IMG/VR virus record: IMGVR_UViG_2537562190_000019
Direction: 5' to 3' (one strand)
DNA length: 9,179 nucleotides
Source of the DNA: a virus
Taxonomy: Duplodnaviria; Heunggongvirae; Uroviricota; Caudoviricetes
This document shows, one piece after another, positions 1 through 9,179 of this stretch. Position 1 is the first letter of the stretch. Every line of letters starts with the position of its first letter. The position numbers and the translations under genes were made by a program. The notes beneath the pieces are model-generated. The model had not been told where the DNA came from, ran no database searches, and worked only from the letters and a program-made list of their open reading frames with translations.

Positions 1-256
1 TGTCAGTTATCATCTTCGGTTACGGTTATCGGCAGAACGCCCTGCCGCTGACAAGAGCTTATTTGCCTGACCAATCTACTCCACATGATAGATAACTATC
101 ATTTATAACATTTCATTGATTAGTCTTTATTTTTCACTACGTTACAAATAACAACCCCGTCAAAAACAGCGAAATTAACTACACCATTAACTACACCGTT
201 TCACGAACAATATCGAACAACCACGAACAAAGATCAACACGCTTTAACCGTTATCA

Positions 257-733: not shown

Positions 734-1666
734 TCAGCTTTTCGCCAGAACGGTGACGGCCTTATCGAGTTTTTGCCATCCGCAATAGGTGATTGCCCTG
801 AACGCTGTAGCGTCATTCTGGAAAAGGCTAACCGCCCCTGATTCGGTTTTTATTACCGCCTCATCAGTTGGGGTTATAACCGTGGCTTCAACGTTAATAA
901 TCAGCTTTTGAGCGTCTATCAGCATCATGCGATCCGCCTGTTCGCTCACAATTACCGGTATTCTCAAAAGCTCTATCTGCCAGAACTCAGCATCAGTAAG
1001 CTGTAAAGCGTTTTCTACGGGCAAGATTAGCGACGACGTGGAAAGCGTGTTACCGTTCGCTATGTGCTTTTTGAAAAGCTCTATGAAGTTTTCGGCCTCA
1101 TCAGCACCATTAAGCACGCCCTCAGGGGATACGCCAGCCACCTCCTGATCACTGGAAAGAAATTTTTTATCTATTTCTTTCACCGATTCCGATGTGATCA
1201 AGTCTCTGATCGCTGAATTTGTACCAGGGGTGCTAAATTTGATTAGCTCGTTATTCAGCATCACAATAGCGCCAAGTTTGCACAGTTTTAGCGCGCTTTC
1301 GTTTACTTCTCCCTCTTTGACAGGGATTTCTTCGGCTTCTTTAAGCCATTTACTACCCTTGCCTGATATTGACTGCAATTTTGCGCCAAACGGAAGATTA
1401 AGCGCGCTGCTGATTAGCTTGCCTGGTACAGACTGCGAAAAAATATACTCGCCAAGCTCTCTTACTATCGGCTCTGCCACCAGCGACGGCATGTTATCCG
1501 TGTTCATTCCGGCAACAATGGATTTTTCAAGAAATAACGATACTGCCGGATCATTTCTTTTCGTCATCTCTATAGCGTCAGCATGGCTAAATTTACACGA
1601 TGCCAGCACGCTGGCGGCGCGAACTGCTGGCACGCCTTTCATGTTTTTACAGATCATCTTCTTCAT
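734..1666 (-). CDS. HK97-fold major-capsid-protein homologue (capsid-size-redirection-like); true start probably the ATG at 1657
   Basis: C-terminal two-thirds show capsid-like blocks as I recall the HK97 gp5 pattern: PEGVLNGADEAENFIEL (cf. EGQLLNGDGTGDNLEGL), RIPVIVSEQADRMMLIDAQ (cf. GLPVVPTKA...GTFTVGGF), NVEATV (cf. DATVEVS). No N-terminal delta/scaffold region. The GGAGG Shine-Dalgarno directly abuts ATG 1666 but sits 9 nt before ATG 1657. Confidence 0.55.
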   Translation of the reverse strand: MKKMICKNMKGVPAVRAASVLASCKFSHADAIEMTKRNDPAVSLFLEKSIVAGMNTDNMPSLVAEPIVRELGEYIFSQSVPGKLISSALNLPFGAKLQSISGKGSKWLKEAEEIPVKEGEVNESALKLCKLGAIVMLNNELIKFSTPGTNSAIRDLITSESVKEIDKKFLSSDQEVAGVSPEGVLNGADEAENFIELFKKHIANGNTLSTSSLILPVENALQLTDAEFWQIELLRIPVIVSEQADRMMLIDAQKLIINVEATVITPTDEAVIKTESGAVSLFQNDATAFRAITYCGWQKLDKAVTVLAKS

Positions 1667-1819: not shown

Positions 1820-2308
1820 TCAGTGTTTTAAGTCTGTTGGTGGCTTAGGGATGGGGAACCGATTTGAGTAGACACTAGCGGCATTGAGTTTTTTAACCTC
1901 TTTTTTCCCAATGCTGCCGATCTTGCGGTGGGTGAACTGGGCCAGCTTAAACGCGGCATCTAAAGCCAGTTTTGGATCTGTGTCCATGTTGTCAATCAGT
2001 ATCCTGCCCATTGCTTTGATGGGGTCGGGTAGGCCGTTATCCATCATCTCAATGGTGTTAATTGATGCCCGTTCCGGTGTAACTTTTTCGGTAACTTTCT
2101 TTGTAACTTTTTTCGGTTTTGTAACCTGAAAAGTTACATCAGAAGTTACAGCCTTAAGATACTTTTTCACCTCAGGATCGTTGGATAGCTGCCAGCCTTT
2201 AACCCTTGCGGTCTTTTCGCTGTATCCCGCATGTATAGCGGCTTCCGTGGGATTTGCGCCCCTTGATAACGCATCAGCAAACCGCTTTTTTTTGGTCGTT
2301 AATGCCAT
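1820..2308 (-). CDS. terS: Small terminase subunit-like protein (TerS-like / packaging-redirection-like), 162 aa
   Basis: N-terminal signature KKKRFADALSRGANPTEAAIHAGYSEKTARVKGWQLSNDPEVKKYL matches the HTH-type small-terminase pattern (...AT.AAI.AGYS.KTA...). Start reassigned from the GTG at 2449 to the in-frame ATG at 2308, which has GAGG 8 nt upstream; the upstream extension crosses a C9 homopolymer and repeats and is unlikely to be coding. Confidence 0.6.
   Translation of the reverse strand: MALTTKKKRFADALSRGANPTEAAIHAGYSEKTARVKGWQLSNDPEVKKYLKAVTSDVTFQVTKPKKVTKKVTEKVTPERASINTIEMMDNGLPDPIKAMGRILIDNMDTDPKLALDAAFKLAQFTHRKIGSIGKKEVKKLNAASVYSNRFPIPKPPTDLKH
2078..2151. repeat. Cluster of GTAACTTT(T) direct repeats plus inverted AAGTTAC copies inside the 5' third of terS
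   Basis: gtaacttttt 2079-2088, gtaactttc 2091-2099, gtaacttttt 2103-2112, gtaacc 2121-2126; inverted gttac at 2133-2137 and 2145-2149. Two more TGTAACTTTT copies lie upstream of the start at 2332-2354. Confidence 0.8.
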
Positions 2309-2438
2309 GCAAAAACCTCGTTTTGAGGGGGTGTAACTTTTCGTGTAACTTTTTTGAAAAGCAAAATTTTCTACGAATGAGACGGGGGGCGGTGTCCAGG
2401 GTGATCGACTTTCCGGCCGGAACACTCCCCCCCCCATG
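2309..2438 (-). promoter_or_regulatory. terS upstream control region: two TGTAACTTTT repeats, G6 tract, 12-bp perfect palindrome TTCCGGCCGGAA (2411-2422), C9 homopolymer (2427-2435)
   Basis: Direct reading. Palindrome and motif repeats sit where a promoter/operator for the packaging module would be; no -35/-10 could be assigned with confidence. Confidence 0.4.
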
Positions 2439-2600
2439 TCATTGCTCACCGAGTAACGAGATCAGGCCTTCAACTTCATTACTCAGCTTGTTTATTCGTG
2501 TCTCAAGCTCTGCGATCTTTTCCATCAATGGCGCTATGGTGTCTCTTGTTTCCTCGCCAATGGCCTTAATGATGCTTGCCTCGCGTTCTGTGATAGCCAT
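2439..2600 (-). CDS. Small coiled-coil-like hypothetical protein, 53 aa (MAITEREASIIKAIGEETRDTIAPLMEKIAELETRINKLSNEVEGLISLLGEQ); below the ORF-track cutoff
   Basis: ATG at 2600 with GGTGAGG 8 nt upstream; begins 4 nt after the stop of the upstream gene. Hand-translated. Confidence 0.4.
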   Translation of the reverse strand: MAITEREASIIKAIGEETRDTIAPLMEKIAELETRINKLSNEVEGLISLLGEQ

Positions 2601-3180: not shown

Positions 3181-3228
3181 TTTTATTTTTACCCTCGTGT
3201 TTAAAAAGTTTTAGGTTGTGGTGCACCT

Positions 3229-3453
3229 CCTCTACCTCTCTACCCAATCATCTTTCAGGTCAGTAATGGCGCGGCTTTCAGATGGGTAGAGGGCTTTCGT
3301 GGCCCTCTACCCATCCTCTACCCGCTCCTCACAAACGACCTTAATCATGGTGGAGGGTGTAGAGGGCTTTTATTTGCCTTCTACCTGCCCCTCTACCCAC
3401 TTATCATATTGAATAATTTATATTTATTTTCTTTAGGTAGAAGAGGTAGAGGG
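3229..3453. repeat. Iteron-type replication origin: at least 6 direct CTCTACC(C) and 4 inverted GGTAGAG(GG) copies flanking an AT-rich stretch (about 3401-3435)
   Basis: Direct copies at 3229-3245 (x2), 3303-3323 (x2), 3378-3398 (x2); inverted copies at 3284-3293, 3359-3366, 3436-3453 (x2); GTAGAGGGCTTT recurs three times. It lies immediately 3' of the primase/helicase gene, the usual position of satellite and plasmid origins. Confidence 0.7.
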
Positions 3454-3466
3454 CTTTTGTCTAAAA

Positions 3467-5221
3467 TTATAAAAACGCGTCGCAATCATCAGTTGTAATT
3501 GCGTTGGTCTGCGTTACTCCCTTAACTCTCCGCGTAATATATTCATGTCCGTAAACTTTTGCCGCTGGCTTCATGGCCTTGCTGAACTCAGCCACGTTTA
3601 GCGGCTTGCTTCTTCCTGCGTATGCCATAAACGCCAGATAGACGCGGTAAAGGCTGTTCCTGGTCGTGTACTTCACTGAATCGCCACCGCCACCCATCAT
3701 CAGGCCGCGCGCTTCCTCCAGAAAATTCAGGAACTGGCAAAACTCAATAACCGGATCCGTCTGTTGCTTTATTGCCAGTGCTTCATCACCGTCGCGCTGT
3801 TCCAGGAGTAAAGCCCGTGCCTTTTCAGGGTCGGCAAAGTTCGCCAGTAATCGGCGGATAATCACAGGGATTTCAGCCGCGACCTTCTCCGGCAAATCCT
3901 TGTCCTTTTCTGCCTCGCTAACGATATTGTCAAAGCGAAAAATCACCCGACGGCGTGACACACCTCCGGCCCGCTCGGTGAATATCATCGGGTTGTTGTT
4001 GGTCGCCAGTACCACCGCCCTTATTACCGTCGTGAATCGCTTCTCATATTTCGGGTTAATTTCGACGGGGTCGCCGCCCGTGATTTTCTTGATGCCCGTT
4101 CCTTCGCCTGTATATTTCGGTTGGTCAGCCAGGACGATAAGACGACTCCCGACAACCTGCGCACGTCCACCAGCATCATCAAGCGATGTCATTTCAGCGC
4201 TTACCGTGTTCTGTTTCCCTGCCAGAAGGCTGGCTATGTGCGTGAATGTACTTTTACCGCTACCGCCGTCTCCGGTGGCCTCAATAAACATCTGCCAGTC
4301 GTACCGGTTCGCCATAATCATGTACAGCGCGGCACATATACGCATCATCTTGCGCGGGTCTTTTCCGGCTGCGTGATCAAGCCATTTGTGAAAGTTTGGC
4401 GCGTTGTCGCGAATGTTCTCCCCAGGTGCTGGTGGCGTGTACTCAATGCCGTTGTGCGTGGTGATCCAGTTCTCCGGCGTGTGCGGGGAAAATTCCCCCG
4501 TTTTCAGGTCAAGCGCACCATTGGCGAACGGCAGCAAATCGCCGGACGGCTCCCCCATTGGTTCGGCAATAACTTTTAACGCTTCAACGGCGTTATTGAT
4601 CACGCGTTTGCTGAAAGTGGCCCTGTGCTCTGAATAGATCGCCACCATTTCGCGGCTAAGTTCCATTGTGCTGACCGGACACCATAACCCGCCGCGCCAT
4701 ACGTGAACGATTTCACTTTCAGGATGTACGCAAACGCCATCAAAGCGATCGGAAAGCAGCTGAGCGCGTTCACTGTCCGCCATCTGCGAAAGTTGCGCCT
4801 TTTGCTTTACCGGAAGCTCAACGACCAGACCTTCAGAAAGATTCTGGCGCTCACGGGCAAGATATTCGCGCCAGTTCTCCACCTTCTGACCGTGCATTCC
4901 TTCGGGGTAAAAATTTGCATCCTGTACACCTGCCGCCGCCAGCTTCTGACCAATCTTTTTGGTCTCCACCAAGTCCAGTTCTCCTGCCTGGTACAGCCTT
5001 ACGCGTTTTTTTCCATCAGGAACAATTTGCAGTGCATCAAGTTCGGCAAGCTGATTTGGCCCAAGCCACACAGGAGGCACATTATCGCCGGATGCGGGGC
5101 CGTCCTGCTCCTGCCACTGTTTTGCATGTGCCCACGCATCACTACCCGCGAAAATAATCACCTCTGTGTCTTTGTGTTTTATTCCGCGTGGCTGTTTTTT
5201 TACGTTCGGTGCCAGTTTCAT
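3467..5221 (-). CDS. Replicative primase/helicase (P4-family primase C-terminal / D5-like SF3 NTPase domain)
   Basis: Walker A GDGGSGKST, Walker-B-like RLIVLADQ, and the P4-family primase C-terminal signature IKKITGGDPVEINPKYEKRFT (cf. LTGGD...F). ATGA overlap with the upstream 99-aa gene. Confidence 0.75.
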   Translation of the reverse strand: MKLAPNVKKQPRGIKHKDTEVIIFAGSDAWAHAKQWQEQDGPASGDNVPPVWLGPNQLAELDALQIVPDGKKRVRLYQAGELDLVETKKIGQKLAAAGVQDANFYPEGMHGQKVENWREYLARERQNLSEGLVVELPVKQKAQLSQMADSERAQLLSDRFDGVCVHPESEIVHVWRGGLWCPVSTMELSREMVAIYSEHRATFSKRVINNAVEALKVIAEPMGEPSGDLLPFANGALDLKTGEFSPHTPENWITTHNGIEYTPPAPGENIRDNAPNFHKWLDHAAGKDPRKMMRICAALYMIMANRYDWQMFIEATGDGGSGKSTFTHIASLLAGKQNTVSAEMTSLDDAGGRAQVVGSRLIVLADQPKYTGEGTGIKKITGGDPVEINPKYEKRFTTVIRAVVLATNNNPMIFTERAGGVSRRRVIFRFDNIVSEAEKDKDLPEKVAAEIPVIIRRLLANFADPEKARALLLEQRDGDEALAIKQQTDPVIEFCQFLNFLEEARGLMMGGGGDSVKYTTRNSLYRVYLAFMAYAGRSKPLNVAEFSKAMKPAAKVYGHEYITRRVKGVTQTNAITTDDCDAFL

Positions 5222-6869: not shown

Positions 6870-7094
6870 TTACACTGCCTTACCTGAATTAATGCGATCC
6901 CGGCTTTTAACCCATTCCATAACCTCGGACAGCAGCCACCCTACAGAACGACCGCCCAGATTAAGACGTGACGGAAAGCGCCCTTTTTTCTCCAGTTCGT
7001 AGCGTGTAGTGCGGCACACTCCTGTTAACTTACGGCATTCATCCTCACGGATTACGCGATCTGATAGTGATTGAAATTGTGTATTTTGATTCAT
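6870..7094 (-). CDS. alpA: AlpA-family phage transcriptional regulator / excisionase-like protein, 74 aa
   Basis: LNLGGRSVGWLLSEVMEWVKSR matches the AlpA signature (...GxRSVGW...E...EW...) and the small HTH size fits. GAGGA lies 9 nt upstream of the ATG. Confidence 0.75.
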   Translation of the reverse strand: MNQNTQFQSLSDRVIREDECRKLTGVCRTTRYELEKKGRFPSRLNLGGRSVGWLLSEVMEWVKSRDRINSGKAV

Positions 7095-7129
7095 AAAAAA
7101 ACGTCCTCGAACGTTGCCGAACGAGGACG
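7095..7129 (-). terminator. Intrinsic-terminator-like hairpin plus U7 immediately 5' of the alpA start; its 3' arm contains the alpA Shine-Dalgarno
   Basis: On the mRNA strand: CGUCCUCG-(12-nt loop)-CGAGGACG-UUUUUUU-AUG. Perfect 8-bp GC-rich stem; 5' arm is CCUC (anti-SD), 3' arm is GAGGA (SD). Confidence 0.6.
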
Positions 7130-7156
7130 ATTCTAGGCGGTAGTAAAACGCCGTTT

Positions 7157-7189
7157 GTGTGATATCACACTACCAGCACGTGATATCAC
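7157..7189. promoter_or_regulatory. Paired palindromic operators GTGTGATATCACAC (7157-7170) and GTGATATCAC (7180-7189), centres 21 bp apart
   Basis: A perfect 14-bp palindrome and a perfect 10-bp palindrome two helical turns apart; the second overlaps the TGA stop of the 257-aa gene. A possible -10 (TAGAAT, minus strand about 7135-7130) lies just downstream. Confidence 0.55.
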
Positions 7190-7959
7190 TTTTTACGTTT
7201 TTGTTGAGATTCACGCCCCAAATACTTTTGCCATGTCTGCCAATGTGTTTTTGGAAATTCTATCCCTCTGGATGCAGCTATAGAATCAATTAAATCTGCT
7301 ATTTTAGGTAATGATTCCGTGTCCAGGTCTACATCACCCATTTCTGGAATAAGTTTAATTAAAGAGTAAATAACCTCATTCCTTTTTGACGATGCTTTTG
7401 GGCTATCTTCTGTTATCTTCGGGAAGTCTCCCGTATTTTTTATATTATCTAAATCACTAGCCATCACACACAAATAGTTAACATCAAATTCATAACCACC
7501 CTTACAAAAAACATACATGAGATTATCATCACCATACTTATTCGTAAGATGAGAACATTTTATATATTGTCTCATGCTAAATTCGACATCAGCAAAAACA
7601 TATGCCGGAGTATAATAAAACCCTGATAAGCTGCTAACATAATAACATTTGATAGAATTCCCTACAGGACCAATAATGGCACTATCTAAAAATTCAGTGT
7701 CACCAGTTAAACCAACTGTAAAATTACTTCCAAAAACAGCAGATTCATCATTGAAAGGATATTTTATTAATTCTTCCTCATTACAACCATTGATAAAATG
7801 ACATAATGAAAAATTGAATTTTTTAGCATCAATTTTTGGTATATATACAGAAATATTAAGAGCACCTATATATGCGTAATGATAAAGATCTTTTATTGCA
7901 CAGCCTAACTTTTCTGCCGCTTCAGGTAACGGATAATAGAGTCTTTTAGGTAATTTCAT
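7186..7959 (-). CDS. AT-rich hypothetical protein, 257 aa, unassigned family; N-terminal HTH-like segment plus a ~210-aa domain of unknown function; candidate accessory/defence cargo
   Basis: ATGA start/stop overlap with the integrase stop (7956-7959) and AGGTGG upstream. Composition is strikingly AT-rich (roughly one-third G+C by eye) against roughly half for flanking genes. N-terminal LPEAAEKLGCAIKDLYHYAYIGAL resembles excisionase/AlpA-type HTH. Confidence 0.7.
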   Translation of the reverse strand: MKLPKRLYYPLPEAAEKLGCAIKDLYHYAYIGALNISVYIPKIDAKKFNFSLCHFINGCNEEELIKYPFNDESAVFGSNFTVGLTGDTEFLDSAIIGPVGNSIKCYYVSSLSGFYYTPAYVFADVEFSMRQYIKCSHLTNKYGDDNLMYVFCKGGYEFDVNYLCVMASDLDNIKNTGDFPKITEDSPKASSKRNEVIYSLIKLIPEMGDVDLDTESLPKIADLIDSIAASRGIEFPKTHWQTWQKYLGRESQQKRKK

Positions 7960-9179
7960 TTGGCCACCTTCAGCATAACAATATTTTCATGATTTCCAGC
8001 CAGCACATCGAGACGCTCAACCCATAGATTAAGAGCGTCACGTTTTGCATCAAGATAACGGGAGTGATTATAGACTCGTTGCATTCCTGGCAACTGGTGC
8101 GCGGTAAGCTGCTCCACAACGTGCGGTTCCACGCCTAAATCGTTCAGCATCGTTGTAAACGTGTGCCGGATGTCGTGCAACGTCCAGGGGGCTTGATTAA
8201 TGCGTCTGTGTGCCGTTCTTCCGTACTCTGATACGGATGATTGCCCTTTCAGTTCTCCGAGCAATAATCCCGTGTGCCTGTTCTGCTCCACCAGCTTCAT
8301 GACAAACGGCAAGATCGCTTCCGGTATTGGCCTGAATATTGCTACCTTCGTTTTGCTGTGTTCTTTCGGCACGGTCCAGAGCATTTCTTTAAAATCCCAT
8401 TCCTGGACCTCAGAGCGTCTTAGCTCAGTGGTACGACATCCGAAGACAATCAGGAGGCGAATCAGGGCGCTGTAGTACGGTGGGTAAATTTTTTCATCAA
8501 GGGCGCGTAGTAATTCCCCAAGCTCCTTGTTTGTTAGTACGCGCTCGCTTATTTCTGCTTTTTTCCCAACATCACCGACAACCATATCATCAAGAACGTT
8601 GCTGATTGCGTATCGTCGTTTTCGGCAGTACTTAAGCGCCTGTTTGCATACCTGTAGCAAAAATCCGGCTGATACCGGATTACGCTTAGCAAGCTGGTCA
8701 AAACAGGCCAGCCAGTGGCGTAGCTCGCATTTTTCCAGTGGCATAGCGCCAATCTGGCTAATTATGTGTTTATTGATCCGGCTTTTCAGTGATTCGTAGT
8801 CAGTGCGCTTTTCCTTTGCGTACGATTCAAGCCAGTAAGTGAGCGCTTCCTTAACCGTCACGGGGGCTAACGCGTCCTGTACAGCATGATTAAGTTCATA
8901 GCGCGGATTTTTCCCCTCAGCCAGCCAGGCGCGACACTGTGCCGCTTTTTCCCTGGCAGCTTTCAGGCTCAGATCGGGATAATTGCCCAGCCTCAGACGT
9001 TCCGGTGATATCTGCCTACCAGTTCCGGCCCTGTAAGTGAAATACCAGGTTAACAGGCCATTGGTTGAATGCCTTACGCTAAGGTTGCCACCATCATTAA
9101 AAAAGGTGTTTTTTGTGGTTGGTGATCCGCTTAATTTTCGTAAAAGAGTGTCGCTAAGTCTATGAATTGCCCTGCTCAT
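7956..9179 (-). CDS. int: Tyrosine site-specific integrase, P4-like family, 407 aa
   Basis: N-terminal arm-binding-like region (TWYFTYRAGTGRQ...), catalytic signatures CRTTELRR (Arg), LHDIRHTF (HxxR) and VYNHSRYLD (His...Tyr nucleophile). The ORF starts at the last base of the window, so its promoter and any attL/tRNA lie outside. Confidence 0.85.
   Translation of the reverse strand: MSRAIHRLSDTLLRKLSGSPTTKNTFFNDGGNLSVRHSTNGLLTWYFTYRAGTGRQISPERLRLGNYPDLSLKAAREKAAQCRAWLAEGKNPRYELNHAVQDALAPVTVKEALTYWLESYAKEKRTDYESLKSRINKHIISQIGAMPLEKCELRHWLACFDQLAKRNPVSAGFLLQVCKQALKYCRKRRYAISNVLDDMVVGDVGKKAEISERVLTNKELGELLRALDEKIYPPYYSALIRLLIVFGCRTTELRRSEVQEWDFKEMLWTVPKEHSKTKVAIFRPIPEAILPFVMKLVEQNRHTGLLLGELKGQSSVSEYGRTAHRRINQAPWTLHDIRHTFTTMLNDLGVEPHVVEQLTAHQLPGMQRVYNHSRYLDAKRDALNLWVERLDVLAGNHENIVMLKVAK

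Follow-up and report, generated by a model that had tools for sequence, protein, structure and literature searches.

A phage satellite between clpS and yljB

The 9,179-bp stretch of DNA analysed here, which we refer to as the window, corresponds approximately to one whole small phage satellite of the PICI type, with all genes on the minus strand (Table 1). Near-identical copies of this island are found in E. coli chromosomes between clpS and yljB/cspD, and the window is 99.4–99.96% identical to those loci; the element is a PICI-type phage satellite of E. coli, ~9.7 kb long, inserted at ATAACTATCAT between clpS and yljB. The island's integrase is a tyrosine recombinase whose arm-binding domain forms a separate N-terminal unit; the protein shows full-length homology to P4 Int and KplE1 IntS, and its N-domain matches PDB 3jtz/3rmp (CP4-like integrase). 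It also encodes a small winged helix-turn-helix (wHTH) protein of the recombination directionality factor (RDF) family, AlpA, which is 43% identical to P4 Vis/ORF88 (E = 4e-18) and 31% identical to TorI, and which matches PDB 8c3t, an AlpA-family protein (7e-08). In the chromosomal locus L004, from an APEC strain, a type I-F CRISPR-Cas system (1384–1772 and 10833–11160) adjoins clpA near the satellite insertion site.

Table 1 Features of the satellite and of its integrase-distal end, in window coordinates
Feature	Position	Strand	Description
Extended imperfect core	86–106		TGATAGATAACTATCATTTAT, 21-bp imperfect repeat enclosing the 11-bp core
att core/crossover region	92–102	.	ATAACTATCAT, 11 bp; left island boundary
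Possible IHF-type bend site	109–121	-	AATCAATGAAATG, one mismatch to WATCAANNNNTTR; between core and 12-mer pair
Tandem 12-mer pair	174–197	-	Int-strand reading GGTGTAGTTAAT GGTGTAGTTAAT; candidate site for the Int N-terminal (Arm-DNA-bind_3) domain
Heptamer array	204–230	-	Int-strand reading TTGTTCG tgg TTGTTCG ata TTGTTCG; candidate cooperative site for an AlpA-family excision factor
HK97-type capsid protein	734–1666	-	
Small terminase subunit (terS)	1820–2449	-	Pfam Terminase_2, 2.7e-10
Primase	3467–5221	-	D5_N/DUF5906
alpA	6870–7094	-	74-aa winged-helix protein, AlpA/Vis family; Pfam Phage_AlpA, E = 1.9e-16
int	7956–9179	-	407-aa P4-type tyrosine integrase; Pfam Phage_integrase 1.6e-17, Arm-DNA-bind_3 1.5e-16

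Several other repeats and palindromes were observed within the island. Between the att arm and the capsid gene lies a repeat-rich non-coding block (240–735) that contains an exact 38-nt direct repeat (257–294 and 617–654), a 54-nt tandem repeat in three copies (367–528), each unit containing a hairpin, as well as palindromes at 572–601 and 692–719; the RNA fold of its minus strand has a z-score of -5.8. Pieces of 48 nt from this block are 92–94% identical to phage roi and antirepressor genes, and similar pieces were seen at the far end of other PICIs, with up to six matches to a 760-base query in some genomes. Directly downstream of the primase gene, at 3225–3460, at least 10 copies of GGTAGAGGG are arranged in both orientations around an AT-rich centre; this cluster is likely the satellite's replication origin, and it explains spurious weak Rfam matches at the same position. 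On the minus strand at 7095–7185, a GC-rich hairpin (CGTCCTCG...CGAGGACG) and then a run of seven T residues directly precede the alpA start codon; the hairpin holds two GTTCG motifs 11 bp apart and is kept in a related island, L013, and two GTGATATCAC palindromes lie just upstream of it. These elements may represent leader or operator control of alpA.

The island boundary and the att core

The initial annotation had placed a likely island boundary close to a set of short tandem repeats near the left end of the window, and the empty-site comparison bore this out. The core was placed by base-by-base alignment of the K-12 empty site with both junctions of an occupied site; the empty site is identical to the window through position 102, and a second copy of ATAACTATCAT at the int-side junction marks the point from which the occupied and empty sites match again. 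The 760-base query was matched in 5425/5426 complete E. coli genomes, and in the listed genomes with an empty site the match spans positions 1–106 of the window only. The att core and the stop codon of yljB, a very small gene, overlap, and integration regenerates this stop at the int-side junction (L003, 1592–1602). The integration target is not a tRNA, and scans of the whole window with Rfam (E-value mode) and for tRNAs returned nothing at or near the repeat site. Given a core at 92–102, the repeats lie ~70–135 bp inside the island (72–128 bp for the exact copies) and therefore on its integrase-distal att arm.

Repeats on the integrase-distal arm

The tandem 12-mer and the three CGAACAA copies described in the initial annotation could be read exactly in the window. 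The 12-mer ATTAACTACACC occurs in perfect tandem at 174–185 and 186–197, and CGAACAA occurs at 204–210, 214–220 and 224–230, with a period of exactly 10 bp and a degenerate fourth unit, TCAACAC, at 234–240. No further copies of CGAACAA were found when both strands of the 9179-bp window were searched, and neither composite pattern (three mismatches allowed) appeared in 200 dinucleotide-preserving shuffles. A phased-array score, itself derived from the heptamers, reached 36.2 at this site, compared with a maximum of 23.6 in 100 mononucleotide shuffles and 13.0 at the next best site of the window. The stretch is AT-rich and non-coding, as had also been proposed: GC content is 0.33 at 103–240 versus 0.46 for the whole window, and no gene is annotated here in the RefSeq copies of the island.

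Read in the orientation of int, the distal arm consists of TTGTTCG tgg TTGTTCG ata TTGTTCG, a 6-bp gap, GGTGTAGTTAAT GGTGTAGTTAAT, 71 bp, and the core; the 12-mers are thus 72–95 bp from the core, within the range of tens to ~150 bp expected of arm-type sites. The exact IHF consensus was sought on both arms of this island and was absent, the only candidate being the one-mismatch site at 109–121. At the homologous position, islands of two related types (types II and III, Table 2) carry an exact consensus, AATCAATGGCTTG or AATCAACGTGTTA, and we take the window's version to be a probable IHF-type bend site.

The integrase-proximal arm

Because the window stops at the first codon of int and so excludes the int-proximal att arm, we read this arm from the near-identical loci L001 and L002. 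Beginning at the core, it comprises TGTTCGtggGTGTTCG (TGTTCG tgg GTGTTCG), ~55 bp of AT-rich DNA, TTGTTCG ccc TTGTTCG tca CAGTTCG ccc TTGTACG, a 6-bp gap, GGTGTAGTCAAT GGTGTAGTTAAT, and 23 bp leading to the int ATG. A second 12-mer pair therefore stands 23 bp upstream of the int start codon, accompanied by heptamers in 4 + 2 copies, and the complete attP measures ~290 bp. On both sides of the core, a heptamer array precedes a 12-mer pair, and this two-part module has the same orientation in each arm. The 12-mer, which is unlike the core sequence, is present on each attP arm in L001, L002 and L004. The motifs of the arms are kept and the spacers between them are not: the 3-bp heptamer spacers differ both between arms and between islands. 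A scan of both arms for sigma-70 promoters and terminators revealed no convincing int promoter, and for this reason we make no claim that the sites overlap Pint.

Distribution and conservation of the modules

Using blastn with the int-side arm and the start of int, we found relatives in 1217/5426 E. coli genomes; a search of species-representative genomes returned a single real relative, in Shigella, at 78% identity. Representatives were compared from five other chromosomal sites (roxA-phoQ, tqsA, rcnR-thiM, allE and abgR), together with a different island at the yljB site and the Shigella locus, which stops before the far island end. Wherever a locus contained both ends of an island, each end carried the tandem 12-mer pair and the phased heptamer array. 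These islands include EcCICFT073 (L009) and an O157:H7 island (L010), both at roxA-phoQ, and capsid-forming islands in tqsA (L011, L014) and at rcnR-thiM (L013). The module was also present on the int side of the allE and abgR islands and in IMG/VR contigs.

Comparison with the L004 island showed that substitutions avoid the motifs. In the distal arm, we counted 0/45 within motifs and 14/113 elsewhere (p = 0.007), with no substitutions in the 12-mers at 174–197; in the int arm, the corresponding values were 2/66 and 14/107 (p = 0.02).

Tandem pairs of GGTGTAGTnnnTGGTGTAGT with other 3′ tails were observed near the ends of unrelated viral contigs (IMG/VR L027, L029, L034, L048, L053 and others). 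Many of the contigs bearing GGTGTAGTnnnTGGTGTAGT derive from sample 3300045988, and other matches are coding tandem repeats. The arm motif GGTGTAGT may be used by further integrase families.

The two motifs follow different proteins

The islands compared could be sorted into four integrase types, which differ in the 12-mers and heptamers that they carry (Table 2). Three 12-mer variants pair with three variants of the Int N-domain, the pattern expected of arm-site specificity. Between types II and III, all four 12-mer copies switch together; little else distinguishes the arms, and the AlpA proteins of the two types show 0–3 residue differences with no consistent change. The heptamers behave differently: types I and II hardly differ in their N-domain strands but do differ in heptamer, whereas types I and IV agree in heptamer type and AlpA allele (88% identity) despite very different integrases. 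The two heptamer types pair with two AlpA alleles, a sample of n = 2 for AlpA, and assort independently of the four integrase types. No such correspondence was seen for either motif with primase type, packaging module or YlcI/YnfO allele, or with the gene that some islands carry between int and alpA. Given that the att arms, int and alpA lie within ~2.5 kb of each other in the circle, part of this co-variation could reflect linkage rather than co-evolution.

Table 2 Integrase types among the islands and the 12-mers, AlpA proteins and heptamers found with them
Type (site)	Int N-domain	12-mer	AlpA	Heptamer
I (yljB)	SVRHSTNGLL	GGTGTAGT(T/C)AAT	69/74 aa	TTGTT(C/T)G
II (roxA, allE, abgR)	SVRHSTSGLL	GGTGTAGT(T/C)AAT	62 aa	TTGTTCC/TTGTTTC/TTGTAGC/TTGTGCA
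III (tqsA)	SVKYLTSGKL	GGTGTAGTCA(C/T)T, all four copies	62 aa	As type II
IV (rcnR)	LEIKHSKGGKL..FRYRTGG	TGTGTGGTCA(G/T)T	74 aa	TTGTT(C/T)G

Islands encoding the 62-aa AlpA have a third array, inverted and composed of 5–6 copies of the same heptamer, between int and alpA. This 10-bp-phased array of xAACAAy (the reverse complement of TTGTTC) lies at ~18370–18435 in L009 and at the same place in L010, L011 and L014–L017; in EcCICFT073-type islands it directly follows the int stop, ~290 bp upstream of alpA. This array fits the reported activation by AlpA of its own promoter (PMC6092414). A search for a heptamer array near alpA in the window's island found none above background. Upstream of its own alpA, the L004 island has CGAACCT tag CGAACAA.

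A proposed function for the repeats and alternative explanations

We consider it probable, with a likelihood of roughly 70% as judged from sequence comparison, that the 12-mers are arm-type sites of Int and that the heptamers are operators of AlpA acting as excision factor (RDF), the two forming one arm of attP together with a probable IHF site. The suggestion in the initial annotation that the repeats are recombinase arm-type sites is thus retained for the 12-mers, which track the Int N-domain, and revised for the CGAACAA array, which tracks the AlpA allele and forms a separate class. According to this model, the N-terminal domain of Int would read the tandem 12-mers (GGTGTAGTTAAT twice on the int strand), and AlpA, as recombination directionality factor, would bind cooperatively to the three TTGTTCG copies, which are spaced by one helical turn and separated from the 12-mers by 6 bp. 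Both modules would flank the core in direct orientation in the excised circle; integrase bound at the core would be bridged to both arms via bent DNA, and AlpA would set the direction of recombination. The boundary, the anatomy of the repeats and their presence on both arms, the retention of motifs between diverging spacers and the separate co-variation of each motif with one protein can be read from the sequences themselves; we infer the binding and bending in this scheme, along with the effects on integration, excision and int expression. Apart from the two-armed placement and the Pint-lacZ result discussed below, points that weigh against the model are the missing array near alpA in this island, the lack of a sigma-70-like int promoter in the int-side arm and the single mismatch of the IHF-like site.

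The heptamers have the layout of RDF operators in one respect and depart from it in another. Three exact copies at 10-bp intervals constitute adjacent direct repeats with one-turn spacing, as is typical of such operators, but arrays occur on both arms wherever both arms were examined, whereas confinement to one arm is typical of lambda and KplE1, although it does not strictly define such operators. This two-sided arrangement, similar to that of Int arm sites, favours an alternative in which both motif classes are arm-type sites, the heptamers being read by Int as well and AlpA having no direct role at att. A precedent exists in lambda Int, whose consecutive arm-type sites P′1-P′2-P′3 are spaced at roughly one turn. 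The same alternative could account for the observation that expression of a Pint-lacZ fusion of EcCICFT073 is unaffected by AlpA (PMC6092414), despite the four-copy heptamer array that we find just upstream of int in that island. Nevertheless, we view it as unlikely, since heptamer type follows AlpA and not the integrase in the comparisons of type I with II and of type I with IV, and islands of the second AlpA allele (AlpA-2) have the array outside att as well, on the upstream side of alpA. This association with the AlpA allele, together with the one-turn spacing typical of RDF sites, indicates that the heptamers are probably not bound by integrase.

One may also postulate that the heptamers are bound by a host nucleoid protein or by another protein of the island, that they are replication iterons, or that they are a neutral duplicate of the int arm; their co-variation with AlpA does rest on two AlpA alleles, which leaves some room for another partner. 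Host sites, however, should not switch type among islands within one species, as the heptamers do, and the array type is independent of the primase (584-aa, 605-aa or RepA), of the YlcI/YnfO allele and of the ORF between int and alpA. The candidate origin iterons are instead the GGTAGAGGG copies adjoining the primase gene; as the heptamer array neither adjoins nor co-varies with that gene, we rejected it as a set of replication iterons. Against neutral duplication, the heptamers are retained across arms and islands whose 3-bp heptamer spacers have diverged, which argues for selection. Taken together, we hold explanations of this group to be quite improbable.

The initial annotation had also raised the possibility of a packaging-protein site, that is, a packaging signal (pac site) bound by the TerS-like protein of the island. 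Packaging sites are often short direct repeats, and the island does encode a TerS homologue (Terminase_2). The same modules are found, however, in islands with entirely different packaging genes: the heptamer array, with the same or closely related 12-mers, is shared by the cos-type EcCICFT073, by the O157 island, which is TerS-only (terS and no large terminase gene), by capsid-forming islands with a P27-type TerS, TerL and HNH, and by L004, with DUF1441 and a protease-capsid fusion. The association with the packaging module that a pac/TerS site at the att arm would entail fails across these cos, TerS-only, TerS+TerL+HNH and DUF1441 islands, and we discarded this candidate. In addition, the repeats are duplicated beside int and not beside terS, and terS and the DNA just upstream of it hold a cluster of another repeat, AAAAGTTAC (six matches versus 0.72 expected). 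We therefore regard packaging signals at the att arm as very improbable indeed.

The copies of AAAAGTTAC(A) themselves lie at 2079–2117, 2128–2150 and 2333–2354; three are in 12-bp tandem inside terS with inverted copies nearby, and two are just upstream of the RefSeq terS start (window position 2308). It is plausible that this cluster is a TerS/pac site or an operator of terS, and it is a better packaging candidate than the att-arm repeats.

AlpA as a possible excisionase

Assigning the heptamers to AlpA bears on the biology of this protein, which is reported as the helper-induced master activator of Gram-negative PICIs and has not yet been described as an excisionase. Excision of EcCIMP1 requires alpA (PMC11773190), and over-expression of AlpA leads to int-dependent excision and replication of EcCICFT073 (PMC6092414). 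We tentatively suggest, at somewhat less than even odds, that AlpA may be the missing excisionase of Gram-negative PICIs, polymerising on phased heptamer arrays on both att arms. Were this the case, a single phage-induced protein would drive both transcription and excision, the latter via an intasome of unusual symmetry, each arm bearing RDF arrays, and EcCICFT073-type islands would add the third array upstream of alpA to the targets of AlpA.

A search of the accessible literature on PICI arm-type sites and on the 12-mer returned nothing relevant and no prior description for PICIs. The present analysis yields a concrete attP map for the E. coli family of PICIs and capsid-forming PICIs that includes EcCICFT073, showing the core, a probable IHF site and, on either arm, the two-part module, and it offers a candidate reason why excision needs alpA in islands that have no annotated xis. 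A tandem 12-mer pair with a phased heptamer array at both ends provides a simple signature for delimiting such satellites, and the independent assortment of 12-mer with integrase and of heptamer with AlpA makes these islands a natural set for swaps.

Comparison with known systems

The feature described here is of a well-known kind, mapped for a family in which the literature searched gave no earlier map, and it leaves the general picture of the tyrosine-integrase mechanism unchanged. The closest resemblance in layout is to satellite P4, whose GenBank record annotates tandem 12-bp pairs as 'attP arm sequence repeat', the first at 16 bp from the int start codon and the second on the other side of the core. 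Similar to the island, the attP of P4 (with the arm repeats of Pierson & Kahn) has a tandem 12-bp pair on each side of the core, the pairs sharing one orientation, and in both elements one pair is located 16–23 bp upstream of the int ATG. The proteins correspond as well: P4 Int is a P4-type tyrosine recombinase with an Arm-DNA-bind_3 N-domain and 22% full-length identity to the island Int, and the island AlpA shares 43% identity with Vis, a small wHTH protein. Papers citing the P4 work state that Vis is needed for excision and that Int and Vis repress Pint. Our reading of the P4 sequence further identified a 10-bp-phased array of four copies (xxxxTCC) that abuts the int-proximal pair on its core side. 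P4 differs in its arm motif, GGGGGCA as opposed to GGTGTAGT in the island; the island core, moreover, is not a tRNA end. P4 also has extra inverted arm copies at and inside int, of which none were found in the island, and no phased array was seen on its int-distal arm, whereas the island family has one per arm.

The KplE1 (CPS-53) recombination module of E. coli K-12 (IntS, TorI) provides a second point of reference. Its attL is composed of the core, GTTCG sites for TorI (a two-site block and then a three-site block with a 10-bp period), Int arm sites and the intS ATG (PMC2951348). The IntS arm sites are spaced at 12 bp, and IntS and TorI bind and repress Pint (PMC2951348). The order on the int side is the same in the island, namely core, two-site RDF block, phased RDF block, 12-bp-spaced arm sites and int ATG, and the RDF motif GTTCG is contained in the island's TTGTTCG. 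KplE1 likewise has an int-distal pair of arm sites (GGGTAAAAT twice, at 12-bp spacing) and an int gene that points outward through its own att arm. The proteins are more distant, IntS and TorI being 21% and 31% identical to their island counterparts, and no GTTCG array was seen on the int-distal arm of KplE1. Binding and repression of Pint by IntS and TorI have been demonstrated, whereas the island sites are putative binding sites.

More generally, the operators of RDFs consist of direct repeats with a spacing of one helical turn, and RDFs with a dual function carry further arrays at promoters (PMC7498355). Dual-function RDFs such as 186 Apl, P2 Cox and P4 Vis have similar arrays at att and in a regulatory region, an arrangement comparable to the third array of EcCICFT073-type islands; the window's island differs in that no third array was found in it. 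The family also departs from these systems in the placement of the arrays: canonical RDF arrays (those of lambda and KplE1, and that of P4 by our sequence reading) occupy one arm only, whereas those of the island occupy both.
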